DNA from: Oceanispirochaeta sp.
Lineage (GTDB): Bacteria; Spirochaetota; Spirochaetia; DSM-2461
Length of the DNA stretch: 64,000 nt
NCBI GenBank assembly: GCA_963677615.2
Contig: CAXXQW010000006.1
Coordinates: forward strand, 33,520-97,519
Direction of reading: 5' to 3'
Position 1 is the first letter of the stretch, and every line of letters starts with the position of its first letter. Below the pieces are notes generated by a model, which saw only the letters and a list, made by a program, of their open reading frames with translations, made no database searches and was not told where the DNA came from. A program made the position numbers and the translations under genes. Of the stretch, positions 15,429-56,964 are shown one piece after another.

Positions 15429-15776
15429 ATCAATTTGTCTTTTCTTTCATATTAAAAACGCCTAATCAGGATAAATCTTGTGATTTTCATTTGTCAATGT
15501 TGATTATCACTTGAAAAGACTTTCTACATTCTGCTTTTGAACTTCATCTCTGCGCAAGAAGTATTGGCACATTTTACATCTTTGATAACCCGTTGTAAAT
15601 GATTAATACATGATTAAGATATTGTACTACAAAGTTTGGTTTTACCCATATCCATTATTCTCTTCTTGAATGGTCAATATCTACCATCTACACTCAGGCA
15701 ATTTAAATTAGATCCCCCTTGATTGGGCAATTTCTCTTTCAGGAGACCGGGTTTGGGAACTCAGATGGGCAATCAT

Positions 15777-15815
15777 AAAAGGCGGCCCCGGATAAGGAGG
15801 AGAAACCGGGGCCGC
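15777..15815 (-). terminator. rho-independent terminator after the fused E1 gene
   Basis: GCGGCCCCGG...CCGGGGCCGC hairpin followed by TTTT on the minus strand. Confidence 0.75.
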
Positions 15816-15865
15816 AACAACACAAATCTATTCTAAAAAGGTATTGGTCTATCTGTTACCGGAAA

Positions 15866-18325: not shown

Positions 18326-18485
18326 TTAAATATCTCCTTTGGCCGGTGGGCCGCTTATTTTTTTTGTTGTAACGTATCTGAATTCTTGTCGTTATGGCTT
18401 AAAGATTTGATCCGGAGACAAGGCAGAAAACGCGGAGCGTACGAAGGTACGTGAGCATTTTCAACGCAGAATCCGGATCAAAGAT

Positions 18486-19823
18486 TCAGTCTATCTCCCA
18501 CAAAGCGTCTTTTATGATTTCTGAAATAGAGGGATGGGGAAAAATAATCTCCTTCACATCCTGTACCCTCAGTTCCATCTCCAGCATAGCCGCTGCGCTA
18601 TGAATAATCTCCGAGCTGTAGGATCCCAGCAGATGGACTCCCAGAATTTCACCCGTATCTGCATCCGCCACTACTTTGCACATACCAGGGGCTTTCTTTC
18701 CCTGCTCTGCCAGAAAACGGCCGTTGGCCCGCATCTGAATGACACCGGTTTTGACATGATACCCCTGTGCTTTGGCATCTTTTTCGGTTAAGCCGCATCC
18801 GGCGGCTTCCGGTTCGGTATAGAGAGCCCAGGGAACAGCGCTGTAACGCATCCGGTCCTGTTTTCCCAAAATGGAATTGACTGCGACTTCTGCCATCCGG
18901 GATGCCGAATGGGCCAGAAGGGATTTTCCGTTTACATCCCCGATGGCATAGATTCCGGGAAGGTTGGTTCTCATCTGCTCATCTACCCGGATTCCCTGGG
19001 GAGCCACATCCAGCCCGATCTTTTCCAGTCCCATGGTAATGGGTCGCCGGCCGACTGCCATAAGAACCATATCTGCATCCAGTGCCGTTTCTGCTCCGTC
19101 TTTTTCAAAATAGACTTTCTTCTCATCGATTTTTGTCACTTTGGCCTTCAGGTGGAAATCCACCTTATCCAGACTCTTGCGTAGTGTGACAGAAAAATCG
19201 GCATCCATCAGAGGTATGATTTCCTCCATCATTTCCACAACCGAAACTTTGACTCCGATGTTGCTGAAAAAAGAGGCAAACTCCACACCGATAACACCTC
19301 CGCCGATGACAACCAGGTTTTCAGGAATCCTCTCAACATTCAGGATTCCCTTGTTGTCCAGTACATGGGGAAGGTCCGAACCGGGAATGGGAGGGACAAA
19401 AGCGGTGGATCCGGTAGCAATAATCAGATTATCAAAACCGTAGCTTTTACCATCGGCCACCACCGTATCGGTTGCTGTAACTTCCGCTTCGGCCATTACC
19501 ACATCCACTTTGTTTTTCTTCATAAGAAAAGCGATCCCTTTCCGCAGGGTATCGATGGTATCCTGCTTGTGGGCCATGGCTTTTTCCAGGCTGAACTGTA
19601 CGTTTTCGGCGGTTACACCGAAGGATTCGCTGGATTTGGCTTTTTTATAGAGCTTGGATGAGTTTAATAGGCTTTTGGTAGGAATACAGCCCCAGTTGGT
19701 ACAAACACCACCCAGGTTTTCTTTTTCAATAAGAAGGACTTTCAATCCTTCATGACCGGCTCTTTCGGCGGCGATATAGCCGCCCGGTCCGGCTCCGATG
19801 ACAATCAGATCGTATTTTTCCAT
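18486..19823 (-). CDS. lpdA: dihydrolipoyl dehydrogenase (E3)
   Basis: GAGPGG, GGVCTNWGCIPTK redox disulfide, GGGVIG, AIGDV, HPSISE. Confidence 0.97.
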   Translation of the reverse strand: MEKYDLIVIGAGPGGYIAAERAGHEGLKVLLIEKENLGGVCTNWGCIPTKSLLNSSKLYKKAKSSESFGVTAENVQFSLEKAMAHKQDTIDTLRKGIAFLMKKNKVDVVMAEAEVTATDTVVADGKSYGFDNLIIATGSTAFVPPIPGSDLPHVLDNKGILNVERIPENLVVIGGGVIGVEFASFFSNIGVKVSVVEMMEEIIPLMDADFSVTLRKSLDKVDFHLKAKVTKIDEKKVYFEKDGAETALDADMVLMAVGRRPITMGLEKIGLDVAPQGIRVDEQMRTNLPGIYAIGDVNGKSLLAHSASRMAEVAVNSILGKQDRMRYSAVPWALYTEPEAAGCGLTEKDAKAQGYHVKTGVIQMRANGRFLAEQGKKAPGMCKVVADADTGEILGVHLLGSYSSEIIHSAAAMLEMELRVQDVKEIIFPHPSISEIIKDALWEID

Positions 19824-19834
19824 AATTTCCTTCC

Positions 19835-21211
19835 TTACAGAGCCAGTATCAGATCGATGTTTTCGAGGTTATTAACAAGAGCCTTCAGAAACCGGCCGGC
19901 CGGCGCCCCATCGGTTGCCTGATGGTCGAAGGTCAGGGAAAGCCCCATATGGGGAACAAAGGAAACATCTTCCCCTTTCATAACCGGCTTGGGCTGAACG
20001 GCACAGACACCCAGGATTCCCACTTCCGGCTTATTCAATACCGGCGTAAAGCTTTCGATCCCCATAGCACCCAGGTTGGTGATGGTAAATGTCCCGCCTG
20101 TGAGTTCTTCAGGTTCGGCCTGCCCTTCCAGACATTTTCCAAAGAGCCTTTTGGTTTCGGTTCCCAGTTCTTTCAGGCTCAGCCTGTCTGCATAACGGAC
20201 AACCGGAACCAGCAGCCCCCGGGGGGTGTCCACAGCGCATCCCAGATGCACATGGGAGAACTGTTTGATCGTATCACCCAGCCAGTGAGCGTTCATTTCA
20301 GGGAAATCCACCAGAGTTCTGGCCGTAACAAGCATAACCAGATCGTTGATGGTGATCTTCTGGAGTCCCATCTCTTCAGGAGACTCTTTAAGCCGTTTTC
20401 TTAATGCCAGGATGCGTGTCGCATTGGCAGAGGTATTCATTGTGAGCTGGGCAGTCTGCTGTATGGACTGCAGCATAAGTGAGGCCGTGACTTTTCTTAC
20501 ACCCTTTACCTTGATTTCTTCTACCGGTCCGGGGAATTCCATGGAAACGGATGATGTCGCGGCTGCGGAGGCGGCAGGAGCGGCATCCGTCAAGTCGGAT
20601 TTGAGAACCCGGCCTCCCAGGCCCGTACCTTTGACGGGAGCTGTTTTGCCTGTTCTGATCATCTCTTCCAGAGCTGCGGGAGTCAGAGGAGCCTGCCCTT
20701 CCATGGCAGAAAGGACATCCCTTTCAATAATCCTTCCCTCGGGACCTGTTCCCGGCAGGGAGGAGAGATTCACGCCTTTGGCTGCCGCAAGATTTCTGGC
20801 CCTGGGAGAGGCAAATCCCCCAATCTCTCCGGAGACTTCCGGAGCAGACGCTGAAGCAGGAGCGGCGGCTGTTGTTTCCGCCTGGGCTTTTGCAGTCTCT
20901 TCAGCTGCGGGCTCAGGTGCGGTACTTTCTCCTCCGGACTGAACTTCCGCAAGGAGTGCGGTGATATCTTCTCCCGGAGTACCGACGATAGCCAGGGGAA
21001 GCATAACAGGAACATCGTCATCTACCTGATAGAGCTGCTTCAGCAGGACTCCTTCTGCTGTTGATTCAACCGAGACTGTAGCTTTATCGGTTTCTGCTTC
21101 ACAGAGTATATCACCGATGCTTACCGCATCGCCCTCCTGTTTGGACCATTCCAGAATAATACAGGACTCTACTGAGTTTCCCGCTTTCGGCATGACAACA
21201 ATTTCCGCCAT
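19835..21211 (-). CDS. pdhC: dihydrolipoamide acyltransferase (E2)
   Basis: Lipoyl domain ETDKA, Ala/Pro linker, PSBD ASPRARNLA..GTGP.GRI, catalytic domain ...FDHQATDGA. Confidence 0.93.
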   Translation of the reverse strand: MAEIVVMPKAGNSVESCIILEWSKQEGDAVSIGDILCEAETDKATVSVESTAEGVLLKQLYQVDDDVPVMLPLAIVGTPGEDITALLAEVQSGGESTAPEPAAEETAKAQAETTAAAPASASAPEVSGEIGGFASPRARNLAAAKGVNLSSLPGTGPEGRIIERDVLSAMEGQAPLTPAALEEMIRTGKTAPVKGTGLGGRVLKSDLTDAAPAASAAATSSVSMEFPGPVEEIKVKGVRKVTASLMLQSIQQTAQLTMNTSANATRILALRKRLKESPEEMGLQKITINDLVMLVTARTLVDFPEMNAHWLGDTIKQFSHVHLGCAVDTPRGLLVPVVRYADRLSLKELGTETKRLFGKCLEGQAEPEELTGGTFTITNLGAMGIESFTPVLNKPEVGILGVCAVQPKPVMKGEDVSFVPHMGLSLTFDHQATDGAPAGRFLKALVNNLENIDLILAL

Positions 21212-21895: not shown

Positions 21896-22060
21896 TTTAA
21901 CACAGTAAATCAGATAAAACTGCACAAAAAAGAGTTTTTCCTCACTGGAGACAATCCTGAAACTGGAATGGAATTCCCTCCGTCAGGACAGGAAAATCAC
22001 ATTGACAGAACCCCGGGGCCTCACTATGTTGTAATAACACAAATCGGAGGAGCCCATCCC

Positions 22061-23332
22061 ATGCTTTACGCCGCTGTCGGAAATGAACATACGAATCTTT
22101 CCCGCGAAGACCTTCAGAAGATTCTTTACGGAGCACTAGACAAAATTCCTGCCAAAGAAAGGACCCTTATCATTCCTCCTGACATGACCCGTCTTCATTC
22201 CCGGGCGGGCGAACTGACAGAGCTGGCATGGCAATACCTGGGAAAAAAGCTTCAGGCTGTCATCCCGGCGTTGGGTACCCATTTCCCCATGAGCAAAAAT
22301 GAGCTGAAAAAAATGTATGGGCATCTCCCTCTTGAACTGATAAAAGAGCATAACTGGCGATGCGGTCTCACCGAACTGGGAAGATTGAGCGGAAAATTCA
22401 TCAGAGAGATTTCCGGAGAAAAGCTGGATTATGACTGGCCTGTAGAGGTTAACAGGATTCTCATTGATCACCCATGGGATCTTATCCTCTCCATCGGTCA
22501 GGTCGTCCCCCATGAAGTCGTGGGTATGGCTAACTATACCAAAAACATTATGGTGGGAGTAGGCGGTAAAGAAGCGATTGATAAAAGCCATTTCCTTGGC
22601 GCCGTTTGTGGCATGGAAAGGATCATGGGAAGGAGTGAAACACCGGTACGGCAGCTCTTCGACCGGGGAGCCGACGAGTTCTGCAAAGACCTGCCTATTG
22701 TTTATGTTCTCACCGTCGTAGCTACTGATGAGGCTGGGAACAATATCACAAAAGGTATCTTTATCGGCGATGACCGGGAATGCTATGAAAAAGCCGCTGA
22801 ACTCTCCCGAAATGTGAATATAAAAAAGCTTGAGAAAGCCCCGAAAAAGGTTGTGGTGTATCTGGAACCTGAGGAGTTCCGCAGCACCTGGCTGGGCAAC
22901 AAAAGCATCTACCGGACCAGAATGGCCATGGCAGACCGGGGGGAGCTGATAGTTCTGGCTCCGGGTGTTCACTGCTTCGGGGAGAATGAAACCATTGATA
23001 AGCTGATCCGCCGGTACGGATACAGAGGAACGGAACAGACCCTCAAGGCGGTTAAAAATAATCCTGATCTGGCGGAAAATCTCAGCGCCGCAGCCCATCT
23101 GATTCACGGCTCATCGGAAGGACGATTTACCATAACTTATTGTCCGGGAGGCTTGTCCCGTGAGGAGATTGAAAAAGCAGGTTACCAGTTTGGAGATCTG
23201 GAATCTTATAGAAAAAGGTACAATCCGGAAAAGCTGAAAGAAGGGTGGAACACCATGGATAACGATGAGGAAATCTATTTTATTTCCAACCCGGCTCTGG
23301 GCCTGTGGGTATGGGAAGAGAAGTTCTTATAG
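22061..23332 (+). CDS. LarA (lactate racemase) superfamily nickel-pincer enzyme, possibly a sugar-acid 2-epimerase
   Basis: IIPPDMTR.H, PALGTH.PM, HNW, VVPHEVVGMANYTK, HLIHGS. Start trimmed to MLYAAV at 22061 (SD GGAGG). Confidence 0.8.
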   Translation: MLYAAVGNEHTNLSREDLQKILYGALDKIPAKERTLIIPPDMTRLHSRAGELTELAWQYLGKKLQAVIPALGTHFPMSKNELKKMYGHLPLELIKEHNWRCGLTELGRLSGKFIREISGEKLDYDWPVEVNRILIDHPWDLILSIGQVVPHEVVGMANYTKNIMVGVGGKEAIDKSHFLGAVCGMERIMGRSETPVRQLFDRGADEFCKDLPIVYVLTVVATDEAGNNITKGIFIGDDRECYEKAAELSRNVNIKKLEKAPKKVVVYLEPEEFRSTWLGNKSIYRTRMAMADRGELIVLAPGVHCFGENETIDKLIRRYGYRGTEQTLKAVKNNPDLAENLSAAAHLIHGSSEGRFTITYCPGGLSREEIEKAGYQFGDLESYRKRYNPEKLKEGWNTMDNDEEIYFISNPALGLWVWEEKFL

Positions 23333-23333
23333 A

Positions 23334-23810
23334 TCAGATTTCTTTTATGTTCTTTTCCATCATTTCCAGGGAATATGCAGTTATGTCTTGAAAGCAAGAA
23401 AAATCAACAAGATTTTCTGTTAATAGAAACTCAATCCCATGAGTCTTCATGGTTGAAACAATATTGGCATCATGGATCTTTTTCCCTTTTAAATCATGCT
23501 TTATGGCAAGATGTGACAGGATTTCTGATGTAACCCGAGTGTCCTCTTTTATTAAAATAAACTTTTTAAAAACTTCAATATTCTGAAAGACATCTTCAGA
23601 CTTCAATCCCAACCCATTTTTATCCAAAGGTCTGGTAGCAACTACCATATACTCTCTGATGACCTGACCACTAAAAACGGGATGAAAGCCATTCTTGTAT
23701 AGTTCTTTGATAACAGTTTTTGCCGTATAATGATTATTCCGGGAACTATCAGTTGCAGTTATTAGTATATTAGTATCCAGAAATACCGTATCACCTTCCA
23801 TCATCACCAT
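23334..23810 (-). CDS. vapC: PIN-domain toxin (VapC/FitB-like)
   Basis: VFLDTNIL, QVIREY, IHDANI, LLTEN..DF acidic PIN residues. Overlaps the upstream antitoxin. Confidence 0.85.
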   Translation of the reverse strand: MVMMEGDTVFLDTNILITATDSSRNNHYTAKTVIKELYKNGFHPVFSGQVIREYMVVATRPLDKNGLGLKSEDVFQNIEVFKKFILIKEDTRVTSEILSHLAIKHDLKGKKIHDANIVSTMKTHGIEFLLTENLVDFSCFQDITAYSLEMMEKNIKEI

Positions 23811-24090: not shown

Positions 24091-24282
24091 TTATAGTATT
24101 TTCTGAACCCTGCCGACCTGACCGTCCTGAAGCCGGACTTTGATTCCGTGGGGGTGATGGGGCGAGTTTGTGAGGATATCCGCCACCAACCCTTCGGTGA
24201 GTTTACCCGACCTCTGGTCCTCTTTCAGAACGATTGCGACCTTCAGGCCGGGTTTGATATTGGCGCGTGTTTTTCCATTCAT
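24091..24282 (-). CDS. ywbE: YwbE family protein (DUF2196)
   Basis: IKPGLKV.IVLK.DQRSGKLTEG.V.DILT.S..HPHGIKVRL.DGQVGRV. Confidence 0.9.
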   Translation of the reverse strand: MNGKTRANIKPGLKVAIVLKEDQRSGKLTEGLVADILTNSPHHPHGIKVRLQDGQVGRVQKIL

Positions 24283-24301: not shown

Positions 24302-25342
24302 TTACTGTATTTGACTCAGAATCTTCAGAAACAACCGGATCTGCTCGTCCGGAACAGACTTGTCAATTCCCACACAGGAGAGAGAAACCGATGATTCCGG
24401 GCCGCCAGCTTGCTGAACCATACGGGAAAGATCAGCCCGCAGATCCTCTTGTGGCACATCAGCAAGCACAACCGGGGAGTATCTCAGATTCAGCCAGCAC
24501 CCGGGAAGTGCCTTCCTCACAGCTGCGATATCCGAACCGGCTCCGACTTCGGCAAAGACAAGACCGGGAACGCCCGCATACCCTTCGACCACATGCTCCA
24601 TGGACTGACCGCAGTGATGAATTCCGTAGGGCTGAAATAACTGGGCAAGTTTCACATCATATTCCAGAAGGAAATCCCGGTAGCTGTCCAGAGAGATCAT
24701 TTCCACGGAACAGTTGGAATGAACATAGAGGGAAGGAAAATCCAGGTAATTGGTAATAGCAGTCACCCCTCCTGAAAGCCAGTCAGAAACCTCGCTGAGC
24801 CTATTGCCCACCTGAACGGACAGGTCAAAACACTTGTCAAAGAGCTGTCTGGCACCCTGTTCATTCTGGTACATATCGATAAAAACGGAATCCCCCCGGA
24901 TATCCAGAGCAAGATTCAGAATTCCCTGCAGATTAATGGCGGAATGGACAGAACCGTATTCTTTCTGCAGCCAGCTGATCTGATCTTCTACAATCCGCCA
25001 ATCCTCACTATCTGTAAGATTTGGCGCCTGAAAATTCTGCATATCCTCTTCAGAAAGATGGGCACAGATCACTTCCGGCGGAGCATCTTCACTAAACCGG
25101 ACATCGCATCCCATCAGACTGGAATACAAATACCCGCTGGCAATCAGATCACTGCCGAGAAGGGGTCTGGGCTCGGGATGTTCCTCCCCGATGCCCCACT
25201 CTCCGAATCTTTCAAACAGAAATCGCCGCATTTTCACATCAGATGCGATCCTGTATGCAGGGTTATTGAAAAACTCTTCTGTGAACCGGATACCCAGGTT
25301 CTGATTCCACCAGGAGGGGTGGAAGGTTATATCATATTTCAT
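24302..25342 (-). CDS. URO-D/MtaA-fold protein (putative Zn-dependent methyltransferase-like)
   Basis: QGILNLA..IRG...F.DMY, SNCSVEMIS, IHHCG, C-terminal LSCVG. Lacks the HemE RQAGR motif. Start trimmed to MKYDIT (25342). Confidence 0.7.
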   Translation of the reverse strand: MKYDITFHPSWWNQNLGIRFTEEFFNNPAYRIASDVKMRRFLFERFGEWGIGEEHPEPRPLLGSDLIASGYLYSSLMGCDVRFSEDAPPEVICAHLSEEDMQNFQAPNLTDSEDWRIVEDQISWLQKEYGSVHSAINLQGILNLALDIRGDSVFIDMYQNEQGARQLFDKCFDLSVQVGNRLSEVSDWLSGGVTAITNYLDFPSLYVHSNCSVEMISLDSYRDFLLEYDVKLAQLFQPYGIHHCGQSMEHVVEGYAGVPGLVFAEVGAGSDIAAVRKALPGCWLNLRYSPVVLADVPQEDLRADLSRMVQQAGGPESSVSLSCVGIDKSVPDEQIRLFLKILSQIQ

Positions 25343-25361
25343 CTGAATTTCCTTTTTTATT

Positions 25362-26489
25362 TTATGAAATCTTATGAATCCTGTTATAAACGGTTTCCTG
25401 ATCTTCAGGTGTTTCGCAGTAGGTGGTGACAATACATTTGAGTCCGTCCTGCTTCAGTTTTCCGTAATACTCCAGAACTGTTTCGGCAGACCCGACAATT
25501 CTTACATGAAGGACCTTACCGGAACCTGAAAAGGCCTTTCCCAGCAATTCCGGATCATTGGGAGAGGGATCGGTCTGTTTTCCCACTGCACCATCAGCCA
25601 TCAGCAGGGAGGGGATGGACTTTACCAGATCAGCCCTGCCCGACCAGTTTCCGCATGAGTGAAAAACCGGGCCTGAAAAAGACCGGGAGGCTGAAACCAT
25701 GGACGGGATACCGAAACGCGCATAATCCTCATCGCTGAACATCAGGATATTGTCGTCACTGAAGCCTATCCCTTCAAAGGCCCGGGAAGAGGCAAATCCA
25801 TGACCCGGTTTCGCAAGAGCATCACCAATCAGGTTCAGCTGTTGATCCAGGAATTCCTTTTCCATTTCGGCAACCGTATCAATCAGCTCCTTAAGATCTT
25901 CCGGGTGATCAAAGGTTTCATACATAAAAGCTGTGGACTCCATCAGGTAGGAAGAGACAATATTCAATGGAGACTGGGTATCCCCCGGGCTCAGAGGAAT
26001 TTTCCCTTTGGTCTGGTCCAGAAAATATTCAATCATTTCCAGAACCTTCTTTCCTTCGGGACTCTCTCCCACAGAACAGACCCTATGGTTCAGAGCGTCT
26101 TTCGCGCTGGTAAAAGGGCCTTCCACAGCAGGAGCTTGCCCCTCTTTCCAGAGATAGGGAACCCCGAAAGCACTGGAAACCACGCCGATTCCGTACCAGG
26201 GTTCCAGGAAATTGGGAATATCCGCTTTAAAGGCCATACTCTTTTGTAAAGCTGCCAGCTGAAGCCCCAGAGAGAGTTTTCTATCCCTGCATCCCCAGGA
26301 AAACACCTCGGGCACACGGAAACGCCGGTAAACCGCAATGCCGTCCTCAGCCTGCCAGAAACTCCGGCACCGGTCCAGGAGGGCCCTTTCATAATCGGCA
26401 TATCCCTCCAGGTCAAAATCGTCTACAGCCACAGGTTCTACCGAAGTTCCCTGGGAATCCGCCAGGGCGGTATTGAATTCATCTTTCAT
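25362..26489 (-). CDS. URO-D/MtaA-fold protein, second copy
   Basis: EPWYGIGVVSSAFG, DTQSPLNI, SDDNILMFS, VFHSCGNW. Start trimmed to MKDEFN (26489, TAATG overlap with the esterase). Confidence 0.7.
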   Translation of the reverse strand: MKDEFNTALADSQGTSVEPVAVDDFDLEGYADYERALLDRCRSFWQAEDGIAVYRRFRVPEVFSWGCRDRKLSLGLQLAALQKSMAFKADIPNFLEPWYGIGVVSSAFGVPYLWKEGQAPAVEGPFTSAKDALNHRVCSVGESPEGKKVLEMIEYFLDQTKGKIPLSPGDTQSPLNIVSSYLMESTAFMYETFDHPEDLKELIDTVAEMEKEFLDQQLNLIGDALAKPGHGFASSRAFEGIGFSDDNILMFSDEDYARFGIPSMVSASRSFSGPVFHSCGNWSGRADLVKSIPSLLMADGAVGKQTDPSPNDPELLGKAFSGSGKVLHVRIVGSAETVLEYYGKLKQDGLKCIVTTYCETPEDQETVYNRIHKIS

Positions 26490-27292
26490 TATTTCTGTCC
26501 ATTTGTTGTTTGAATTTCGAGCCATCCAAGAGCGAGATGGAACCACTGGGCCACATGGGGATCGGAGAGACGGTTTTTCTCAGGCTGATCCACCTCGGGA
26601 GTTGCCAGGGACAAACCATGTTCTCCCTTGGGAAAAACATGAAGTTCCGCCGCAACTCCTGCTTTTTTCAGGGCAGAAAAGAAATGGAGAGAATTCTCTA
26701 CCGGCACCTCCCTGTCGTCTGCGGTGTGCCATAAAAAGGTAGGGGGAGAGCTCTTTTTTACCTGGAATTCCAGAGAAAAATACTCCCGCAGGGCGGGATC
26801 TCCCCCGGTAAGATGACGCATGGAGCCTTGATGATAATCCTGGCTCATGGAAATCACAGGATAGCTGAGAACCACAGCATCAGGCCGGCAGGTTACGGCA
26901 GGAGAGGAGGCTCCCGCTTCATCCGTAAACTGCTGATCCACAGATGCCCAGTGAACTCCCAGAGAAGCAGCCAGGTGTCCTCCTGCGGAAAACCCGCAGA
27001 CAGCAACCCGCACATACCCCATGGCCCGGACTTCCCGGACAGCTCTGCCCAGAGAGCACAGAGGTTCAAAGCGCAGAGGTTCGTCCCGGGTGTCATCCTT
27101 AACAGGATAACGGAGCACAAAAGGCTGCCACCCGCCGGCGGCATAGGCATCCGCCACCGGTTCAGCTTCCCGGTCGGCCAGCATTTGATACCCGCCGCCA
27201 GGGCAGATGACAACCGCCCCCTTAGCCTGTGGAACCTTTGGAAAGGAGCTAAGTCCTTTCATAGAAAAATCTTTATCCTTCATATATGACAT
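26489..27292 (-). CDS. alpha/beta-hydrolase carbohydrate esterase (PaeX/BD-FAE-like acetylesterase)
   Basis: ICPGGGY, GFSAGGH, SYPVIS, PPTFLWHTADD..VP, HGL. Cytoplasmic. Confidence 0.85.
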   Translation of the reverse strand: MSYMKDKDFSMKGLSSFPKVPQAKGAVVICPGGGYQMLADREAEPVADAYAAGGWQPFVLRYPVKDDTRDEPLRFEPLCSLGRAVREVRAMGYVRVAVCGFSAGGHLAASLGVHWASVDQQFTDEAGASSPAVTCRPDAVVLSYPVISMSQDYHQGSMRHLTGGDPALREYFSLEFQVKKSSPPTFLWHTADDREVPVENSLHFFSALKKAGVAAELHVFPKGEHGLSLATPEVDQPEKNRLSDPHVAQWFHLALGWLEIQTTNGQK

Positions 27293-27317
27293 GGCAACCT
27301 TACTTGAGAGTTAAAAA

Positions 27318-28628
27318 TCAGTTTCCCGTTGCCAGGGGCATCAGTTTATCCGGAAGGAACATAACAATACCGGGCACATAGGAGATAATCAGAAGCACGG
27401 CGATCATAATCATAAAGAAGGGCAGCAGCTTTTTAACCAGTTTCTCAATCGGCACTCCCGACACAGCAGACCCCACAAAAAGGGTTCCCCCTACGGGAGG
27501 TGTAATAAGGCCGATTCCCAGGTTCAGAATCATCACAACACCAAAGTGGACAGGATCCATTCCGATGGTCCGGGCTATGGGGAGGAGAATGGGAGTCGCC
27601 ACAAGAATAATGGCGGACATATCCATGATAGTCCCCAGGACAAGCATAACAATATTGAGAATGATCATAATGACAATCTTGTTCTGAGTCAGACTGAGAA
27701 TTCCGTTGGCAACCAGTTCAGGCATGTGAAGATAAGTCAGCAGCCAGCCGAAAACCTGAGAAGTGGAAATCAGGATCATAACAATAGCCAGAGTATTGAG
27801 TGACCGTTCCATCAGATGCCAGATTTTTTTGGGTGTCAGTTCCTTATAGACTATAATTCCCACAAGGATGGCCCATACAACCGCAATAGCAGCAGACTCG
27901 GTAGCTGTAAAAATACCGCTCACAACTCCTACAACAACAATAAGGACTGTAATCAGCCCCCAGATGGAATCTCCAAGGGTTCTGAACAGGGTTTTAAAGC
28001 TAAACGCATCTCCTTTGGGGTATTTATGACGGACTGCTTCGATATAACTGAAAACCATCAGGGCAATTCCCAAAAAAACACCGGGTATAATCCCCCCCAG
28101 AAACAGGCGTCCCACCGAAACACCGCCGGCAACCATGGCATACATAACCATATTGTGACTGGGTGGAATCAAAAGCCCCTGAACCGAACTGGCCATGGTA
28201 ATATTGGTGGCAAACTCCTTGTCATACCCTTCCTTGGCCATCATGGGAATAAGAATGGTACCCAGCGAAGCAGTATCAGCTGTGGATGACCCGGAGATTC
28301 CTCCGAAAAACATGGAAGCCATAACATTTACCGTAGCAAGACCTCCCCGCATCCATCCGATAATCGCATTGGAAAGCTTGATCAGGCGGTTGGAAATTCC
28401 CCCTGCCCCCATGAGCTCTCCGGCAATAATAAAGAAAGGCACTGCCATAAGGGTGTAGACATTCACTCCTTTTACCATGAGCTGAGCTATCTGCATGATG
28501 GGTAGTCCCAGATAGATGGTTGTCACGATACTGGAGACACCGATAGCAAATGCGATAGGGACTCTCAGAACCAGAAAAATAAAAAATGACCCCACCAGAA
28601 TGAGGGTGGCTGTAGTATTAAGATCCAT
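27318..28628 (-). CDS. dctM: TRAP transporter large permease
   Basis: AVPFFI.AGELM, SMFFGGISGSS.AD, LIPPSH, GLITPPVG. Confidence 0.95.
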   Translation of the reverse strand: MDLNTTATLILVGSFFIFLVLRVPIAFAIGVSSIVTTIYLGLPIMQIAQLMVKGVNVYTLMAVPFFIIAGELMGAGGISNRLIKLSNAIIGWMRGGLATVNVMASMFFGGISGSSTADTASLGTILIPMMAKEGYDKEFATNITMASSVQGLLIPPSHNMVMYAMVAGGVSVGRLFLGGIIPGVFLGIALMVFSYIEAVRHKYPKGDAFSFKTLFRTLGDSIWGLITVLIVVVGVVSGIFTATESAAIAVVWAILVGIIVYKELTPKKIWHLMERSLNTLAIVMILISTSQVFGWLLTYLHMPELVANGILSLTQNKIVIMIILNIVMLVLGTIMDMSAIILVATPILLPIARTIGMDPVHFGVVMILNLGIGLITPPVGGTLFVGSAVSGVPIEKLVKKLLPFFMIMIAVLLIISYVPGIVMFLPDKLMPLATGN

Positions 28629-28630
28629 TA

Positions 28631-29203
28631 TTAATTATCCTCGCAGTGTTGGATGATTTCTGCAGCATCTTCCACAAGAGCTTCCGCTTCTTCTTCCTGA
28701 CATCGGGTTATTTCAAGCTTCTGCCCTGTGGCCATCCGGTGGCAGAAGTTAATAAAACGTTCTATTTCCATCAGCATTATGGCGGCACCTGATATGGGGC
28801 CGGCCAAAAAAAGCCAGCTAGACTTGATAGACATCCCGGTAATGACATTCCGATTGGCAATGCTCAGGAATTTACTCCCGTATATAAACAGAAAAAGGCC
28901 GAAACCGAACATGAGAATCTGTCCGAATGCCCTTATGACAGGCATAGCTTTATCCGGAACCAGGTAGTCGATAATCTGCATACGGATATGAGTGTCTTTC
29001 CGGATGGCCAGAGCGGCGCTTATAAGGGACATGTACACCATAAACATAAGAACAACCGGTTCACCCCATGTCATAGGTGATTTGATAAAATAGCGGTTTA
29101 TAATAACCCAGGTTGTAATAACAATCATTCCGATAAATCCGATTTTACAGATTGTCAGAAAGATCCAGTAAACCGTATCGAAAAATTTTTTAACTGCTTT
29201 CAT
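28631..29203 (-). CDS. dctQ: TRAP transporter small permease
   Basis: Four TM segments, RY....TWGE, HIRMQI; lies between dctP and dctM. Confidence 0.9.
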   Translation of the reverse strand: MKAVKKFFDTVYWIFLTICKIGFIGMIVITTWVIINRYFIKSPMTWGEPVVLMFMVYMSLISAALAIRKDTHIRMQIIDYLVPDKAMPVIRAFGQILMFGFGLFLFIYGSKFLSIANRNVITGMSIKSSWLFLAGPISGAAIMLMEIERFINFCHRMATGQKLEITRCQEEEAEALVEDAAEIIQHCEDN

Positions 29204-29336
29204 TTGAACTCCTCTCTCCCCATTCCCTGATTAAACTTTTAATACAGGCTCCCCTCCGGACAACAGCAAGAGGGGGGCCGGAGATAGTCAATCAGGAAAT
29301 GACAGACCTCCTCGGAAGGAGGCAGTATTCACTCAA

Positions 29337-30359
29337 TTACTTAGAGAGAATCGCTTCGTAATAGTCTTCCAGACCTTCGATATATTTCAGCACAACAGGT
29401 TTGGCCAGTTCGACATAAGCGGCTTTATCGGAGACTTCGGAAACACTGGCACCGGCAGCTTTGATCTTTTCGATAAGCTCACCGTCAAGCTTTTCAATAG
29501 AAGCGCGGTTCCACTCTTCCGCTTCTTTACCGGCTTCCATGATAATCGCCTGATCTTCAGCATCCAGTTTGTTGAATACCGCTTCGCTCATAAGAACGAT
29601 AGAGGGGCTGTAGGTATGTCCGGAAAGGGTGTAGTTGGGCGCAACTTCAAAGAAGTTATTGGAAAAGTAACCTGAGTAGGGCTGTTCCGCTCCATCTACT
29701 GTTCCAGCCTGAAGTGCAGAATAAAGCTCACCGAAACTGATGGGAGTAGGCTGTACACCCAGAGCCTGGAAAGTCTCAGACATCAGCTGGGTAGTGGGAA
29801 CTCTCAGTTTCAGACCTTTCAGATCTTCCACGCTGCTGATTTCAATTCCGGGTTTGGTAAAAATATGACGGGCTCCTTCGTCCAGGTAAAAAAGTCCAAC
29901 CATTCCGGTGTTGGTTTCCTGAGGTTCTTTCAGGAACTCTGCCCCGATTTCACTGTTCAGAACATTCCAAAGATGTTCTCTGTCCCGGAATATAAAGGGA
30001 AGACCGAAAAGGGTCAGTTTCTGTACGCCAAAATCACCCAGTGAGTTGGTATTTCCGCGGCACATATCGATGGCGCCGCCGCCCATCTGAAGAGACTGAT
30101 ACATGGTTTTTTCATCACCCAGCTGACCGGCAGGGAAAACCTCGATTTTAATGCGGCCGTCAGACTTTTCATAAACAAGCTCAGCAAACTTGGAATCCAC
30201 CTGTTCCATAATATGATCTTTGGGGTTCAGTTCCGCAAATTTAAAGGTGTAGCTCTTTTTTGCTCCGTCAGAAGCACCACTTTCACCCTGGCCATTGGAC
30301 CAGGCCAGTACAGAAACCATCATTAATACAGCAGATAGCAAAACAATTCTTTTTTTCAC
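29337..30359 (-). CDS. dctP: TRAP transporter substrate-binding protein
   Basis: IEVFPAGQLG.E, LPFIFRD, DLKGLKLRVP, PTPISFGELYSALQ.G.VDGAE. GTG start; signal peptide ending WS-NGQGE. Confidence 0.95.
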   Translation of the reverse strand: MKKRIVLLSAVLMMVSVLAWSNGQGESGASDGAKKSYTFKFAELNPKDHIMEQVDSKFAELVYEKSDGRIKIEVFPAGQLGDEKTMYQSLQMGGGAIDMCRGNTNSLGDFGVQKLTLFGLPFIFRDREHLWNVLNSEIGAEFLKEPQETNTGMVGLFYLDEGARHIFTKPGIEISSVEDLKGLKLRVPTTQLMSETFQALGVQPTPISFGELYSALQAGTVDGAEQPYSGYFSNNFFEVAPNYTLSGHTYSPSIVLMSEAVFNKLDAEDQAIIMEAGKEAEEWNRASIEKLDGELIEKIKAAGASVSEVSDKAAYVELAKPVVLKYIEGLEDYYEAILSK

Positions 30360-32608: not shown

Positions 32609-33142
32609 TTGGAGAAAACAGAGACTTTCCGGTTCAAAACAAATATGGATGAAAAAACATTCAGAGATTTTGCTTTTTTTAACAGTTTCCTGTCCCGGGG
32701 CCGATGGAAGAGTCTGGCTCTTTTTCCTGTGGCAATGGCAGGTATGGGCCTTTTGAATTTAAAAACCGGAAGCCCCTTTCTCTTTAAACTTTTCCTTGTA
32801 CTGGCAGCAGCCGGTCCTGTTTTGTACATTCTTTTTTTTAAAATCACCCTGAAGAATCAGATAAAAGCCAATAATCTGAAAGAAGGCCGCCTTGTCTATA
32901 CAGCCCTTTTCAGGGATGGTCTGATCGAAATAGCCAATGACCATGAAAAACAGCCTGTAGAATGGGAGAATATCTACAGGATCTACAGATATAAGGATTA
33001 TTTCTACCTTTATGCCACCCTCACCCATGCGTTTATCCTGCCTGCAAAGGGGTTGATAGAAGGATCTTCGATTGAAAATTTCTGGAAATTTGCAAAACAG
33101 ATGGCACCGGAAGGAAGGAGCAAATCCTATAAAAAAGCTTGA
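32609..33142 (+). CDS. YcxB family membrane protein
   Basis: Two TM helices then a C-terminal YcxB-like domain (VEWENIYRI...DYFYLY.....AFILP). TTG start with SD AGGAG. Confidence 0.7.
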   Translation: MEKTETFRFKTNMDEKTFRDFAFFNSFLSRGRWKSLALFPVAMAGMGLLNLKTGSPFLFKLFLVLAAAGPVLYILFFKITLKNQIKANNLKEGRLVYTALFRDGLIEIANDHEKQPVEWENIYRIYRYKDYFYLYATLTHAFILPAKGLIEGSSIENFWKFAKQMAPEGRSKSYKKA

Positions 33143-33276: not shown

Positions 33277-34017
33277 ATGGGAAATGAGACTTCAGCCATA
33301 GTGTCCATAGAGCTATTTGAAAACAGGGAAACAGAACTGGCTCCGGAAGATTACATTCTCACAAGAATCAGGGAACTGGTGGTATCCGGCCAGCTTCATC
33401 CCGGGGCAAAACTCCCTTCCGAAAGGGCTCTGGCGGAAAAGCTGGAAACCACCAGAGGAACAATCCGAAAGGCTCTGCAGAAACTGGACTTCTACGGCCT
33501 GGTGGAGATTTCTCCCCAGAGCGGTACCAGAATCGCCAATCTTCATGCGGGGACAGTGGAACAGCTAATGCAGTCCATCCCGGTCAGTAAAAACCAGAAG
33601 ATGGCGGATCTTATGGAAGCCCGTTTTATCCTGGATGTTCAGTGCGCCAGACTGGCCGCCGAAAGACGGTCCGAGACAGACCTGGAACTTATCGAGAAGA
33701 GACAGGAAGAGTTTCTCTCCCGCTTTTACGGCAAAGAAGACTACCTGGAAGAGGATTACCTTTTTCATCTGGCCATAGCCCATGCAACAGGCAATCATGT
33801 TCTGGTATCCCTTTTCAGCCAGCTGACTCCCAGAATCGTCATGCAGGACCAGCCCCATCTGAAGCAGAAGGATAAGGACTTTTCCCGCATTCCCATGGAA
33901 CATATCCGCATACTCGAAGCCATACGGCAGGGAAATCCCGACGAAGCCGAAGCAGCTATGATCCAGCATCGGGAATGGGCTTTAAAGCGGGTTTTTTCAA
34001 GTAAAGAGAAGGAATAA
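33277..34017 (+). CDS. GntR/FadR-family regulator (UxuR/ExuR-like by context)
   Basis: PGAKLPSERALAE.L..TR.TIR.AL..L wHTH, FCD domain (D..FH.AIA.A.GN..L; EH..I..AI). Confidence 0.92.
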   Translation: MGNETSAIVSIELFENRETELAPEDYILTRIRELVVSGQLHPGAKLPSERALAEKLETTRGTIRKALQKLDFYGLVEISPQSGTRIANLHAGTVEQLMQSIPVSKNQKMADLMEARFILDVQCARLAAERRSETDLELIEKRQEEFLSRFYGKEDYLEEDYLFHLAIAHATGNHVLVSLFSQLTPRIVMQDQPHLKQKDKDFSRIPMEHIRILEAIRQGNPDEAEAAMIQHREWALKRVFSSKEKE

Positions 34018-34057: not shown

Positions 34058-35539
34058 ATGAGTCAAGTAACAGATAAAGTACTGAATGCATCAGTCGCAG
34101 CGGAAAAAGGCTGTGTAAAACAGAAGAGGCCGGAGAGGATCCTCCAGTTCGGTGAAGGGAACTTCCTCCGCTGCTTTATAGACTGGCAGGTGGATATTCT
34201 GAACGAAAAAAAAGGTCTGAATGCGGGAGTCGTAGTCGTTCGTCCCATAGATACAGACTTCCCCCCCCTGCTGGATACCCAGGACGGGCTTTATACCTCC
34301 ATCATACGGGGTTACGATGAGCAGGGTGAACTGAAAAATGAAAAGCGTCTGATATCCTGTATTACCCGGGAAATCCCCGTTTACAAAGAGTATGACAAGT
34401 TCCTCGCTCTGGCGGAAAATCCGGATCTGCGGTTTATCGTGTCCAACACCACAGAAGCGGGGATTGCCTACAACCCTGAAGACAGATACGATGACCGTCC
34501 ACAGTCTGCCTATCCGGCCAAACTGACCCGGTTTCTCCATGAGAGATTCAAAAAGTTCGGAGGATCCTCCGATTCGGGTTTTATCCTGATTCCCTGCGAG
34601 CTGATTGATTACAACGGAGACGCCCTCAAAGAGATTGTCCTGAAGTATGCAGATCTCTGGAATCTGGAGGAGGAATTTGTCTCCTGGATTGAAAAAGACA
34701 ATACCTTCTGCTCCACCCTGGTGGACCGCATTGTTACCGGATACCCCCGGGATGAAGTGGAAGAACTGACGAAAGAACTGGGATACAAAGACAATTTTAT
34801 TACAACCGGAGAATACTTTCACCTCTTTGTTATTCAGGGACCAGACTTCGTGGGAGAAGAACTTCACCTGAAAGGCAGCGGTCTGAATATCAAGCTGGTG
34901 GAAGACTTAAAGCCCTACAAACAGAGAAAAGTGGGAATCCTGAACGGCTGTCATACAGCCCTGGTTCCCGTTGCCTATCTCTGCGGCATAGAGCTGGTGA
35001 AAGACGCTGTGGAAAATCCAGATCTTGCCGCCTTCATCCAGAAGCTCCTGGACAATGAGATTATCCCCAACCTGGGAATGCCGGTGGATTATCTGAAGGA
35101 CTATGCCGAAACGGTTCTGAACCGGTTCAGAAACCCTTTTATCAACCATCAGCTGCTTTCCATTTCTCTCAACTCCATGACCAAGTTTAAAACAAGACTG
35201 CTACCCCAGTTTATGGAATACTATAAATCCAATTCCTCCGTCCCCCCTCTGATGTCACTCTCCCTGGCAGCTCTCATCTGCTTCTACAGAGGAACCCTGG
35301 ACGGAAAAGAGTATCCCGTCAACGACGACAAACCCTTCCTGGATCTGTATAAGGAACTCTGGCAAAAGGATCCTGAATCCCTTGAAGATGCCATGGACAT
35401 TGCTGGCAGGATTCTCTCGCTAGATGATCACTGGGGTGTTTCTCTCAAAAGCCTGGATGGTCTTCACCAGAAAGTGGGTGAAGATATTCTGAAAATCATC
35501 ACCAATGGTATGACAAAAACACTGGAGGAGTACCTTTGA
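34058..35539 (+). CDS. uxaB: tagaturonate reductase (altronate oxidoreductase)
   Basis: LQFGEGNFLR.F.DW, SNTTEAGI, PCELI..NG..L, TLVDRIVTG, KV.ILNG.HT, RF.NPFI.H.L.SISLNS. Confidence 0.93.
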   Translation: MSQVTDKVLNASVAAEKGCVKQKRPERILQFGEGNFLRCFIDWQVDILNEKKGLNAGVVVVRPIDTDFPPLLDTQDGLYTSIIRGYDEQGELKNEKRLISCITREIPVYKEYDKFLALAENPDLRFIVSNTTEAGIAYNPEDRYDDRPQSAYPAKLTRFLHERFKKFGGSSDSGFILIPCELIDYNGDALKEIVLKYADLWNLEEEFVSWIEKDNTFCSTLVDRIVTGYPRDEVEELTKELGYKDNFITTGEYFHLFVIQGPDFVGEELHLKGSGLNIKLVEDLKPYKQRKVGILNGCHTALVPVAYLCGIELVKDAVENPDLAAFIQKLLDNEIIPNLGMPVDYLKDYAETVLNRFRNPFINHQLLSISLNSMTKFKTRLLPQFMEYYKSNSSVPPLMSLSLAALICFYRGTLDGKEYPVNDDKPFLDLYKELWQKDPESLEDAMDIAGRILSLDDHWGVSLKSLDGLHQKVGEDILKIITNGMTKTLEEYL

Positions 35540-40221: not shown

Positions 40222-40298
40222 AAAATCCTCCTGTATTTTTACCCGGTTCGATCATGACCGGAATCCGGGTTTATACCTTTTTTGGGAAAACCGGTTTA

Positions 40299-41519: not shown

Positions 41520-41525
41520 AGTCTC

Positions 41526-43025: not shown

Positions 43026-43175
43026 AATCTCACACTCCTTTATGGGATTTTTCCTGTGAGGATAGAAAAATTATCCCCCCGAATTTCAAATCGCGAAATT
43101 GAGGATTTTACGGAGAATGTTTAAATTTTTCCTAAAAGGTGGAGTTTTTTTAACAAAAAAAGGGAAACAGGAACT

Positions 43176-44909: not shown

Positions 44910-44931
44910 ATCAAAAAAAAAGTAAAGTTCT

Positions 44932-53936: not shown

Positions 53937-53939
53937 CCT

Positions 53940-56664: not shown

Positions 56665-56847
56665 GTATATACCTCGTATACGTTATTTGGTTTTCATAAC
56701 GGAAGGTCTTCTGGCTTTCAGATCATCAGCTGATTTCACCCTTCCCGGGGGTTCCCAGTGGGCGGTGGTAAAACCTGAAAAATCAACTTCCCTGATTACA
56801 GCGGCGGGACCGCGGAGGAATCTCACCTCTCTTCCCTGTTCCGTATG
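56665..56847 (-). ncRNA. cobalamin riboswitch (controls btuFCD-cbiZ)
   Basis: Minus strand: AGGGAA-gaga-GGTGagATTCC...GGTCCCGCCGCTGTAA...GCCCACTGG...GGGAAG...AAGCCAGAAGACC. P1 CATACGG/CCGTTATG. The 3' hairpin GTATA-CGAGGTA-TATAC carries the SD of btuF. Confidence 0.93.
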
Positions 56848-56964
56848 AATTGTAAGTAGAAAACTGGGGCATAAAAGACGAATTGTCAACATGAATAGCA
56901 AATGATTACAAAAACATCGCTATTTTTTTATGGAAGGATCCGTTCAAACCGGTTTACCATGTCA

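Follow-up and report, generated by a model that had tools for sequence, protein, structure and literature searches.

We describe here two proteins, which we will refer to as U1 and U2, that are encoded in a 64,000-nucleotide stretch of the genome of an Oceanispirochaeta species (assembly GCA_963677615.2, contig CAXXQW010000006.1, positions 33,520 to 97,519), hereafter the window. Both proteins are members of the uroporphyrinogen decarboxylase (URO-D) superfamily, and their genes are the last of six closely spaced genes on the minus strand (24302–30359 of the window), which encode the three subunits of a tripartite ATP-independent periplasmic (TRAP) transporter (dctP, dctQ, and dctM), an esterase, U1 and U2. 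We rate U1 and U2 as a widespread and so far uncharacterised branch of the URO-D/MtaA superfamily that has been recruited to the catabolism of uronates and pectin. They fail the curated scores of every named MtaA- or HemE-type family that was tested, have no corrinoid protein or activase adjacent to them, and are found in sugar-acid loci. Their role is probably to strip methyl groups from plant-derived uronic acids, and our preferred reading of the chemistry, which we hold tentatively and at slightly below an even chance, is a demethylation of uronates in which a corrinoid acceptor is supplied in trans. The initial annotation of this region, which was made from its sequence alone, had proposed that imported uronates are de-esterified and O-demethylated before they enter the Uxa pathway. 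The fold, the ligand set and the link to uronates described below support this reading in part, whereas its substrate and its chemistry are still proposals.

Fold and putative metal site of U1 and U2

Both proteins exceed the gathering score of the Pfam URO-D family (PF01208, 23.9 bits; Table 1) and are thus members of this superfamily, with the match in U1 spanning only residues 100–224. For the hemE equivalog TIGR01464, which has a cut-off of 303, U1 scored 13.2 bits and U2 gave no match, and for the MtaA/CmuA models TIGR01463 and NF004889 (cut-offs 235–244) the scores were 21–27 bits for U2 and 13–22 bits for U1. The profile matches observed among the NCBIfam models were weak (E 1.6e-6 for U2, to MtbA, and E 8e-5 for U1), and searches of the PDB chains with U1 and U2, using both single sequences and profiles, gave nothing usable, the best match being a HemE at E 0.16. 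Hence, these proteins were placed by fold comparison only. The AlphaFold 2 (AF2) models, constructed from 29-sequence alignments, have pLDDT values of 94.6 for U2 and 93.0 for U1, and in both of them a distorted (beta/alpha)8 barrel is predicted that is superposable on HemE and MtaA. The top PDB match of U1 in Foldseek was MtaA (4ay7), followed by HemE, and that of U2 was also MtaA (4ay8/4ay7, TM 0.70). Beyond these two entries more than 20 HemE entries were matched, with E 1e-8 to 5e-13 and TM 0.55–0.70 over the MtaA and HemE matches, and MetE was a weak match for U2 alone (E 5e-5, TM 0.47). As modelled, U1 and U2 are MtaA-like TIM barrels of the URO-D superfamily, and the TIGR01464 scores together with the ranking of MtaA ahead of HemE bear out the earlier view that they are not HemE and have a URO-D/MtaA fold. 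When compared with each other by hhalign (probability 96%, identity 17%), the two sequences align as remote paralogues.

Within each family, in 29 sequences extending to about 48–50% identity, a set of potential metal ligands is invariant. In U1 this set consists of H277-S-C279-G, D299, and C358 (in TTYC), and in U2 of H242-H-C244-G, E265, and C323. The RQAGR motif of HemE is absent from both proteins, whose N-terminal regions instead read YRRFR (U1) and TFHPSWW (U2), and an H-x-C-G motif is retained (FHSCG in U1 and IHHCG in U2), as the initial annotation had stated. It had, however, credited only one of the two proteins with a late Cys; this residue is indeed present in U2 (LSCVG), but U1 also has an invariant late Cys (C358) that had been overlooked. 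Further invariant elements are YRRFR, EPWYG, DTQSP, PGHGF, TDPxPN, and R330 in U1, and TFHPSWW, C79, and N210-C211 in U2. As none of the 29 sequences of either family departs from the H-x-C, the acidic residue or the late Cys, these motifs represent more than a chance occurrence, and the His-x-Cys and distal Cys of the MtaA/CmuA zinc site appear, at the sequence level, to be present in both U1 and U2. The H-x-C...C set that had been claimed is in fact invariant in both families and its spacing (2/21/58 in U2 and 2/20/59 in U1) is close to that in MetE (2/22/62). The zinc ligands of MetE are His618, Cys620, Glu642, and Cys704, and this enzyme and MtaA have been classed together as zinc-dependent thiol alkyltransferases; the fold nearest to that of MetE is found in uroporphyrinogen decarboxylase, which is without a metal (PMC539065). 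Due to the presence of the invariant His-x-Cys...Glu/Asp...Cys set at near-MetE spacing, we infer that both U1 and U2 contain a putative catalytic zinc site of the alkyl-transfer type.

Among proteins of known function, the best structural match to U1 and U2 is the MtaA of Methanosarcina mazei (4ay7/4ay8), and the methylcobamide:coenzyme M methyltransferases of methanogens (MtaA, MtbA, and MtsA) share with them the size of the TIM barrel and the H-x-C plus late Cys. However, U1 and U2 score 10 to 40 times under the cut-offs of these families, the identity in structural alignments is about 15%, and their hosts are bacteria without coenzyme M, in which no corrinoid protein or MT1 is adjacent and the context is the uptake and catabolism of sugar acids rather than methanogenesis. 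The possible resemblance to MetE, as far as it can be read from sequence, lies in the near-equal spacing of the putative His-x-Cys...Glu...Cys ligands, which would fall on the equivalent strands (5, 6, and 8 in MetE), and also in the combination of two related barrels, as a U2-U1 fusion exists. In contrast, there is no sequence-level similarity to MetE and no Meth_synt Pfam match, U1 has an Asp in place of the Glu and often occurs without U2, and the substrates are unrelated.

Homologues of U1 (1971 proteins) are more numerous than those of U2 (453 proteins), and where these are named at all in the sources they are only called 'hypothetical' or 'uroporphyrinogen decarboxylase family'. In a scan of one genome per species, U1 was present in at least 355 species, and its hosts include members of the Spirochaetota, Bacteroidota (Bacteroidales), Bacillota (Clostridia), Planctomycetota, KSB1, Atribacterota, Cloacimonadota, and others. 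All hosts of U1 and U2 that were found belong to anaerobe-type lineages. The U1 sequence is at least 50% identical across phyla and 76–82% identical within Oceanispirochaeta/Marispirochaeta. This conservation is unusual, as U1 accounts for just a few full-length clusters in a set of 1.84 billion representatives (clustering at 50% identity). One protein of 724 aa from the representative protein library (P0241) is an end-to-end U2-U1 fusion (E 6e-93 for the U2 part and E 7e-164 for the U1 part), in which an Ala replaces the late Cys of the U1 half (TYA, not TYC) and the U2 half reads HYCG and CCVN. This protein is either a Rosetta-stone fusion or the result of a frameshift joining two overlapping genes. 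A literature search on the U1 and U2 families found no paper describing them.

Association with the uptake and catabolism of uronic acids

The six genes of the window are linked as tightly as the initial annotation had described. The stop codon of the esterase gene overlaps the start of U1 (TAATG), the gap between dctP and dctQ is 133 nt, and the remaining intergenic gaps are 2, 25, and 19 nt; the lengths of U1 and U2 in Table 1 are counted from the ATG of this overlap and from an ATG with AAAGGA ahead of it, respectively. Because of the short gaps and the TAATG overlap, it is plausible that dctPQM-esterase-U1-U2 form a single operon. All three TRAP subunits are present and adjacent, with TIGR00787 and TIGR00786 scores above the cut-offs, and in a PDB sequence search the closest relatives of DctP were 4n8y (E 8e-54) and 4x8r (E 2e-51). 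These two structures are of TRAP binding proteins with bound galacturonate and glucuronate, respectively (PMC11668362), and to judge from this similarity the ligand of DctP is probably of the hexuronate type.

The fourth gene of the series encodes an alpha/beta-hydrolase of the general BD-FAE family (39.9 bits vs. a threshold of 26.8), with the nucleophile motif G-F-S-A-G, that is of the cytoplasmic serine esterase type. Its relatives in the PDB are 6a6o, 3bjr, 3hxk, and 4bzw, and the same esterase family also precedes U1 in loci L013–L016 and L082 (identifiers of this form denote related loci with U1/U2-type genes outside the window). Its matches to NCBIfam models are all below cut-off, viz. 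the lp_1002 arylesterase (172 bits, cut-off 300), the PaeX equivalog NF041902 (131 bits, cut-off 550), and AxeA1 (100 bits). Although the protein, as an alpha/beta-hydrolase with a GxSxG nucleophile, resembles PaeX of Dickeya, it is a generic BD-FAE/PaeX-like serine esterase, and as its score is far below the PaeX cut-off, the term 'pectin acetylesterase' describes a resemblance only. A further parallel is provided by BT1017, the dedicated esterase that B. thetaiotaomicron needs for growth to deal with the methyl esters of rhamnogalacturonan II (RG-II), which likewise shows that methyl decorations of uronates must come off for growth (PMC7939467). However, BT1017 belongs to an unrelated esterase family and acts on methyl esters outside the cytoplasm, and neither PaeX nor BT1017 acts on methyl ethers.

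The gene neighborhoods of U1 and U2 were examined in 80 genome and 80 metagenome loci (~160 in total), in which open reading frames (ORFs) were called and clustered, the recurrent clusters being named from Pfam, NCBIfam, and PDB searches. U1, U2, and a third URO-D paralogue, U3, were assigned with family hidden Markov models, and U1 was called in 73 of the 80 genome loci, the ORF caller having missed seven. Within the U3 class, the member in L046 (332 aa) is nearer to MtaA/CmuA than is the 380-aa U3 of L006. A transporter is located within three genes of U1 in 49 of the 73 genome loci (SSF in 21, MFS in 12, TRAP in 10, and ATP-binding cassette, ABC, in six), while U2 and U3 are found within this distance in 28 and 16 loci, respectively. 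The same 73 loci contain a GH28 gene in 15 cases, an esterase (BD-FAE, AXE1-like, or GDSL) in 12, the tagaturonate epimerase UxaE in seven, and UxaA/UxaB in four to five, all these neighbor counts being lower bounds, as many of the contigs are short.

The arrangements in individual lineages show the same association. In the Desulfitibacter locus L006 the gene order is uxuB-uxuA-HK-RR-dctPQM-U1-U2-X-U3-cupin-uxaB-uxaA, where X is a BH0493-type uronate isomerase (E 3e-159 to 2q08). The order in Sedimentisphaerales L011 is dctPQM-U1-uxaE and in Clostridia L064 dctPQM-U3-U1-U2-...-uxaC-uxaB-uxaA. Blautia has LacI-sugar ABC-U1-U2, and in KSB1 and Cytophagia a TonB receptor is followed at some distance by U1-SSF-...-GH28-GH28. 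In the metagenome loci U3-U2-U1-uxaB-uxaA and U2-uxaB-uxaA recur, and in six loci from the human gut U2 lies between a close homologue of the GH138 enzyme BPa0997 (6hze, E 5e-193) and a GH78 rhamnosidase (3w5m, E 5e-166). The B. thetaiotaomicron counterpart of BPa0997, BT0997, is the alpha-galacturonidase acting on side chain A of RG-II (PMC13501991), a polymer that holds methyl-etherified galacturonic acid (GalA) and methyl-esterified glucuronic acid and GalA (PMC8218411). The genomic context of U1 and U2 was never tetrapyrrole synthesis in the loci examined. Their association with the uptake and catabolism of uronic acids, above all those of pectin, is robust and is independent of the window, and with it and the relatives of DctP the uronate link proposed earlier is much stronger than could be told from the sequence alone.

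Two further protein families, which are essentially without Pfam or NCBIfam annotation, were noticed in these loci. They are labeled 'GHL10?' (~463 aa) and 'unk633' (~633 aa), are found at 13277–16610 of L007 and in its relatives, and in the KSB1, Cytophagia, and Pirellulales loci they are repeatedly encoded in the interval that separates U1-SSF from the GH28 genes. Both are candidates for new pectin-active enzymes.

The operon of the window may thus be pictured as an uptake-and-trimming module for substituted uronic acids, which would feed the neighboring UxaC/UxaB/UxaA enzymes. In the proposed sequence of steps, the TRAP system would import a hexuronate carrying plant-type decorations, the serine esterase would take off O-acetyl or possibly methyl-ester groups, and U1 and U2 would remove O-methyl groups to yield plain galacturonate or glucuronate. 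A common decoration of xylans and arabinogalactans is 4-O-methyl-glucuronate, which together with the methyl-etherified GalA of RG-II side chain A and uronate methyl esters makes up the candidate substrates. The putative His/Cys/Cys(+Glu/Asp) zinc would polarize the methylated oxygen or hold the nucleophile, and the methyl group would leave by an SN2 reaction, most probably to the cob(I)amide of a corrinoid protein whose gene would lie in another part of the genome.

Proposed methyl acceptor and alternative explanations

An indication that U enzymes may handle a methyl group comes from six of the ~160 related loci in which a corrinoid protein is encoded (L046, L078, L083, L092, L124, and L160; the corrinoid gene of L078 was missed by the ORF caller and recovered by tblastn). 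The Atribacterota locus L083 reads ABC-U1-U3-U2-PocR/AraC-corrinoid protein-MTHFR-ETFb-ETFa-MeTr-HcyBio, where MTHFR is methylenetetrahydrofolate reductase, ETF is electron transfer flavoprotein, MeTr is a methyl-tetrahydrofolate (methyl-THF):corrinoid methyltransferase (NF005719, 344 bits), and HcyBio (PF01837) is a protein of homocysteine biosynthesis by sulfur incorporation. In the rumen Bacteroidales loci L046 and L078, a MeTr/ETF/ETF-MTHFR fusion set is divergent from U1-MFS-corrinoid protein-MtaA/CmuA-like methyltransferase-MetH-activation-like protein, with a GH88 gene nearby. In L092 (Cytophagia), which reads U1-SSF-...-MtaB (E 4e-163)-corrinoid protein, the mtaB and mtaC-like genes (14716–16778) are inserted between genes that are adjacent in L007, L020, L041, and L052, while in L124 and L160 the corrinoid protein adjoins U3. 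The U3-type neighbors score 58–132 bits against the MtaA/CmuA models, which is below cut-off. These corrinoid and one-carbon (C1) arrangements arose independently in three phyla, which is difficult to account for if no one-carbon unit is handled by the U enzymes. The suggestion of the initial annotation that a partner might act in trans gains support from these six loci, although about 96% of the loci are without a corrinoid protein. Of the B12-binding and activator genes that it proposed to look for next to orthologues, the former were found in these six loci and no RACE-type activase was seen, its position in L046 and L078 being held by the MetH-activation-like protein.

Two side observations were made on these loci. 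The 605–609-aa fusions of an ETF alpha-like protein with MTHFR (5604–7421 of L046 and 3972–5801 of L078), which lie beside ETF beta-like and MeTr genes, are an unusual architecture for methyl-THF oxidation, and L092 presents a methanol methyltransferase in a member of the Bacteroidota beside GH28-type pectin genes.

Two known anaerobic systems are of comparable organization. The phenyl methyl ether O-demethylases, which consist of a methyltransferase I (MT I; OdmB, VdmB, or MtvB), a corrinoid protein, a methyl-THF methyltransferase II (MT II) and an activating enzyme, resemble the present system in the superfamily of their MT I, in their anaerobic hosts and in having several paralogous MT I genes per genome, and the co-operonic corrinoid protein, MeTr-type MT II and MTHFR of L083 and L046/L078 extend this likeness. 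They differ in that the substrates we infer for U1 and U2 are uronic acids rather than aromatics and that the window and most U1/U2 loci lack the corrinoid partner. The type 1 mlp clusters of anaerobes also contain two to three divergent MtaA-like URO-D paralogues side by side, are of unknown function, and have no tetrahydrofolate methylase in the cluster (PMC10418091). The U1/U2 module differs from these clusters by its transporter, its esterases and its uronate genes, and the Mlps, which are about 30% identical to MtaA/MtbA, are far closer to these enzymes than are U1 and U2.

Several observations weigh against the proposal that U1 and U2 transfer methyl groups to a corrinoid protein in trans. 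Their scores with the curated MtaA/CmuA-type models are 13–27 bits, compared to cut-offs of 235–600. No homologue of a corrinoid protein was detected in the 64-kb window by tblastn with three corrinoid proteins (E <= 1e-3), in agreement with the initial annotation, and no MeTr, activase, or U3 is present in the window; in about 96% of the related loci no corrinoid protein, MeTr, or activase lies within 6–10 kb of U1/U2. In Bacteroidales and Planctomycetota, where stand-alone corrinoid proteins are uncommon, U1 is often alone beside a transporter. Where a corrinoid protein is encoded, its direct neighbor is of the U3 type in five cases and MtaB in the sixth, and never U1 or U2, so that the C1 evidence reaches U1 and U2 only via paralogy and shared operons. 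In known corrinoid methyltransferase systems, by comparison, the corrinoid protein is normally co-localised (PMC10418091). Lastly, TRAP binding proteins require a free carboxylate, so that methyl ethers or partly esterified oligomers are favored over monomeric methyl esters as the compounds taken up.

The most closely related alternative, which we consider rather unlikely, retains the substituted-uronate substrates and assumes a corrinoid-independent, MetE-like chemistry, possibly by a pair of face-to-face U1/U2 barrels. A zinc-activated nucleophile, either a thiol such as homocysteine or water, would take the methyl group directly, with methanol as the product in the latter case, or else methanol would be eliminated from the 4-O-methyl uronate, and organisms that use C1 compounds would have added MtaB/corrinoid modules to harvest the released unit. 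It would account for the high proportion of loci that lack a corrinoid protein and for U1 plus a transporter often being the whole unit, for the match to MetE in ligand set and spacing, including the fourth carboxylate ligand, and for the corrinoid protein of L092 being paired with a methanol-specific MtaB, which fits a release of methanol in the vicinity of U1. The U2-U1 fusion P0241 also agrees with it, as MetE is likewise a double barrel that arose by duplication (PMC539065), but this lone fusion may have arisen from a frameshift or from faulty assembly, and the late Cys is missing from its U1 half. HcyBio is found beside C1 genes in L083 and also in the window, a link that consists of two cases. 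Chemically, however, it is hard for a thiolate or hydroxide to displace an alkoxide directly from a sugar methyl ether, and all biological O-demethylations without O2 that are known to us use Co(I). Additionally, U1 frequently occurs without U2, which makes an obligate U1-U2 double barrel unlikely. The related idea of an obligate U1-U2 heterodimer was likewise downgraded, as U2 is not within three genes of U1 in 45 of the 73 genome loci and is also found without U1.

It is also possible, although in our judgment unlikely, that U1 and U2 are zinc-dependent uronate isomerases, epimerases, decarboxylases, or hydratases with no methyl chemistry, e.g., a uronate isomerase that is not orthologous to the known ones, or an enzyme acting on a less common epimer. 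Several Planctomycetota loci of the type transporter-U1-(esterase)-GH28-UxaE, in which no uxaC is in view and U1 occupies the expected place of the isomerase, point in this direction, as does the fact that the founder of the URO-D family is a cofactor-free decarboxylase. Cys2His(+Asp) zinc sites are also present in enzymes that do not transfer alkyl groups, such as beta-carbonic anhydrase and alcohol dehydrogenase, and the strong conservation of U1 across phyla would be expected for one common small substrate. Against this, the window, L006, and L064 each encode UxaC or a BH0493-type isomerase alongside U1/U2, which contradicts a plain replacement of the uronate isomerase by U1. Moreover, the best structural match is to a methyltransferase that shares their metal motif, the corrinoid, MeTr, MTHFR, and MtaB genes that recur in the same operons in three phyla are not predicted for a non-C1 enzyme, and substrate-specific methyltransferases typically come as families of two to three paralogues per locus. 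Considerably less probable is a role in the use of methoxylated aromatic acids, where the esterase would free a ferulate-type acid, which the TRAP system would import and U1/U2 would demethylate in the manner of OdmB, VdmB, and MtvB. The esterase does have its best relatives in, among others, BD-FAE, which is a family of feruloyl esterases, and the lp_1002 arylesterase, and TRAP systems for hydroxycinnamates exist. However, galacturonate and glucuronate are the ligands in the best solved relatives of DctP, the recurrent neighbors are GH28, UxaE, UxaA/B/C, uronate isomerase, GH138-like, GH78, and GH88 rather than genes for aromatic acids, and the family of the esterase varies from locus to locus (BD-FAE, AXE1-like, or GDSL) while the uronate genes persist. 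These points are set against the existence of URO-D-superfamily MT I enzymes for phenyl methyl ethers (PMC10418091). That U1 and U2 are ordinary HemE uroporphyrinogen decarboxylases, as their above-threshold Pfam match and the public name 'uroporphyrinogen decarboxylase family protein' would imply, has a negligible probability in view of their TIGR01464 scores (13 bits for U1 and none for U2, vs. 303), the absence of RQAGR, of any sequence-level match to a solved HemE and of tetrapyrrole synthesis from the genomic context, and the invariance of their Cys/His metal-type set, while HemE is metal-free (PMC539065).

Surroundings of the operon and significance

The features of the window are summarized in Table 1. 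The AraC-type regulator lies upstream of dctP on the same strand and is probably the activator of the TRAP-U1-U2 operon; its family (cluster 9) also precedes the TRAP-U1 operon in the Oceanispirochaeta/Marispirochaeta loci L013–L016, L018, and L010. The gntR-uxaB-uxaA-uxaC operon is divergent from the TRAP operon, as had been described, but the two do not directly adjoin, the AraC-type regulator and a small conserved ORF lying in between. This ORF of 177 aa, which has a TTG start and is located between the AraC-type regulator and gntR, is probably a real gene, because its homologues (cluster c42) occupy the same position in Oceanispirochaeta L013–L015. A scan for promoter patterns around the operon was uninformative (15 promoter-like sites vs. 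12 expected), and a scan for terminator patterns found none convincing after U2.

Table 1. Positions, strands and supporting matches of features in the 64-kb window.
Feature	Position	Strand	Evidence or remarks
2-oxoacid dehydrogenase complex	15866–21211	-	fused E1 alpha/beta (819 aa), plus E3 and E2
LarA_N-like protein	21968–23332	+	
PIN-domain protein	23334–23810		
Short ORF	~24100–24280	-	
U2, URO-D superfamily, 346 aa	24302–25342	-	PF01208, 39.5 bits
U1, URO-D superfamily, 375 aa	25362–26489	-	PF01208, 38.6 bits
Esterase, alpha/beta-hydrolase, BD-FAE/PaeX-like	26489–27292	-	Pfam BD-FAE, Abhydrolase_3, Peptidase_S9
DctM, TRAP large permease subunit	27318–28628	-	PF06808, E 8e-117; TIGR00786
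DctQ, TRAP small membrane subunit	28631–29203	-	PF04290, E 1.4e-23
DctP, TRAP solute-binding subunit	29337–30359	-	PF03480, E 7e-75; TIGR00787; N-terminus signal/lipoprotein-like
AraC-type regulator, 637 aa	30525–32438	-	C-terminal HTH_18/HTH_AraC and GGDEF_2-like domain (Pfam)
177-aa ORF	32609–33142	+	
GntR/FCD regulator, head of divergent hexuronate operon	33277–34017	+	PF00392, PF07729
uxaB-like oxidoreductase	34058–35539	+	Mannitol_dh, Mannitol_dh_C
uxaA, altronate dehydratase	35536–37041	+	GD_AH_second, GD_AH_C
uxaC, glucuronate isomerase	37063–38457	+	UxaC, E 4e-202
Binding-protein, ABC and sensor genes	39124–49288		see text
HcyBio	50631–51809	-	PF01837
BtuF-like/FecCD (BtuC-like)/ABC-ATPase (BtuD-like)/CbiZ operon	53178–56663	-	
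Cobalamin riboswitch	56684–56885	-	81.7 bits
Cobalamin riboswitch	56976–57092	+	61.8 bits
TonB-dependent receptor	58683–60638	+	

Downstream of U2 a short ORF, a PIN-domain protein and a LarA_N-like protein are encoded, none of which is found again beside U1/U2 in distant loci; only the close relative L015 also has the LarA-like gene with its neighbors. Farther away are the genes for a 2-oxoacid dehydrogenase complex, and at roughly 16 kb of the window the GC content shifts from about 0.37–0.40 to about 0.50. On the other side of the uxa genes, the region 39124–49288 encodes a Peripla_BP_4 binding protein, the permease and ATPase of an ABC transporter, a 7TMR-DISM GGDEF protein, and another binding protein accompanied by a Cache/His_kinase sensor and by a response regulator of the AraC type. 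With these additional genes for sugar uptake and signalling, the window belongs to a more extensive region devoted to the use of carbohydrates.

The elaborate B12 uptake locus that had been reported for the window was confirmed and contains two back-to-back cobalamin riboswitches in addition to transport genes. The minus-strand riboswitch heads the operon of BtuF-, BtuC-, and BtuD-like proteins and CbiZ, the last of which suggests cobamide remodelling or salvage, and the plus-strand riboswitch heads two unknown proteins, a TonB-dependent receptor and a 399-aa unknown protein. As the uptake and salvage of B12 is under riboswitch control in the window, this organism depends on imported cobamides, but the locus does not tie cobamides to the TRAP-U1-U2 operon. 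The HcyBio gene of the window lies close to the B12 locus, and in L083 the corresponding gene (19553–20731) directly follows MeTr; this may be fortuitous, or it may hint at a connection of homocysteine or methionine with the flow of methyl groups.

Methyl ethers on sugars block their ordinary catabolism, and to our knowledge no anaerobic enzyme has been described for the demethylation of uronates such as the 4-O-methyl-glucuronate of xylan and arabinogalactan or the methyl-etherified GalA of RG-II, with which anaerobes of the gut, rumen, and sediments have to deal. A literature search for demethylation of 4-O-methylglucuronate or methylated sugars by bacterial corrinoid enzymes yielded no direct report, the nearest being the preprint on the mlp clusters, which are of another type. 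The only carbohydrate demethylases found in the literature searches made here are O2-dependent P450s of aerobic marine bacteria, which act on 6-O-methyl-galactose (PMC6292453). They resemble U1/U2 in their proposed role, viz. the removal of a methyl ether that blocks catabolism, and differ in fold, cofactor, and need for O2, and are thus functional analogues only. Since every host of U1 and U2 that was found is of an anaerobe-type lineage, these proteins fit the role of an O2-independent counterpart of the P450 sugar demethylases. In the most far-reaching form of this proposal, which we regard as speculative and unlikely as a whole, U1 and U2, together with U3, would be the first anaerobic carbohydrate O-demethylases, a zinc-dependent, MtaA/MetE-like family acting on the methyl ethers of uronic acids such as the methylated GalA of RG-II and 4-O-methyl-glucuronate. 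They would be corrinoid-free in most hosts, with a two-barrel U1/U2 unit that transfers the methyl group directly or releases methanol. If true, it would represent a new means of cleaving sugar methyl ethers and a route, so far unseen, for the methyl groups of plant cell walls in guts and sediments. Should U1 and U2 indeed demethylate uronates, by whichever chemistry, a large and mis-named family would be assigned a role, models of pectin and xylan fermentation would be supplied with a missing step and, in some lineages, the methyl groups of plant cell walls would be tied to B12 and C1 metabolism.

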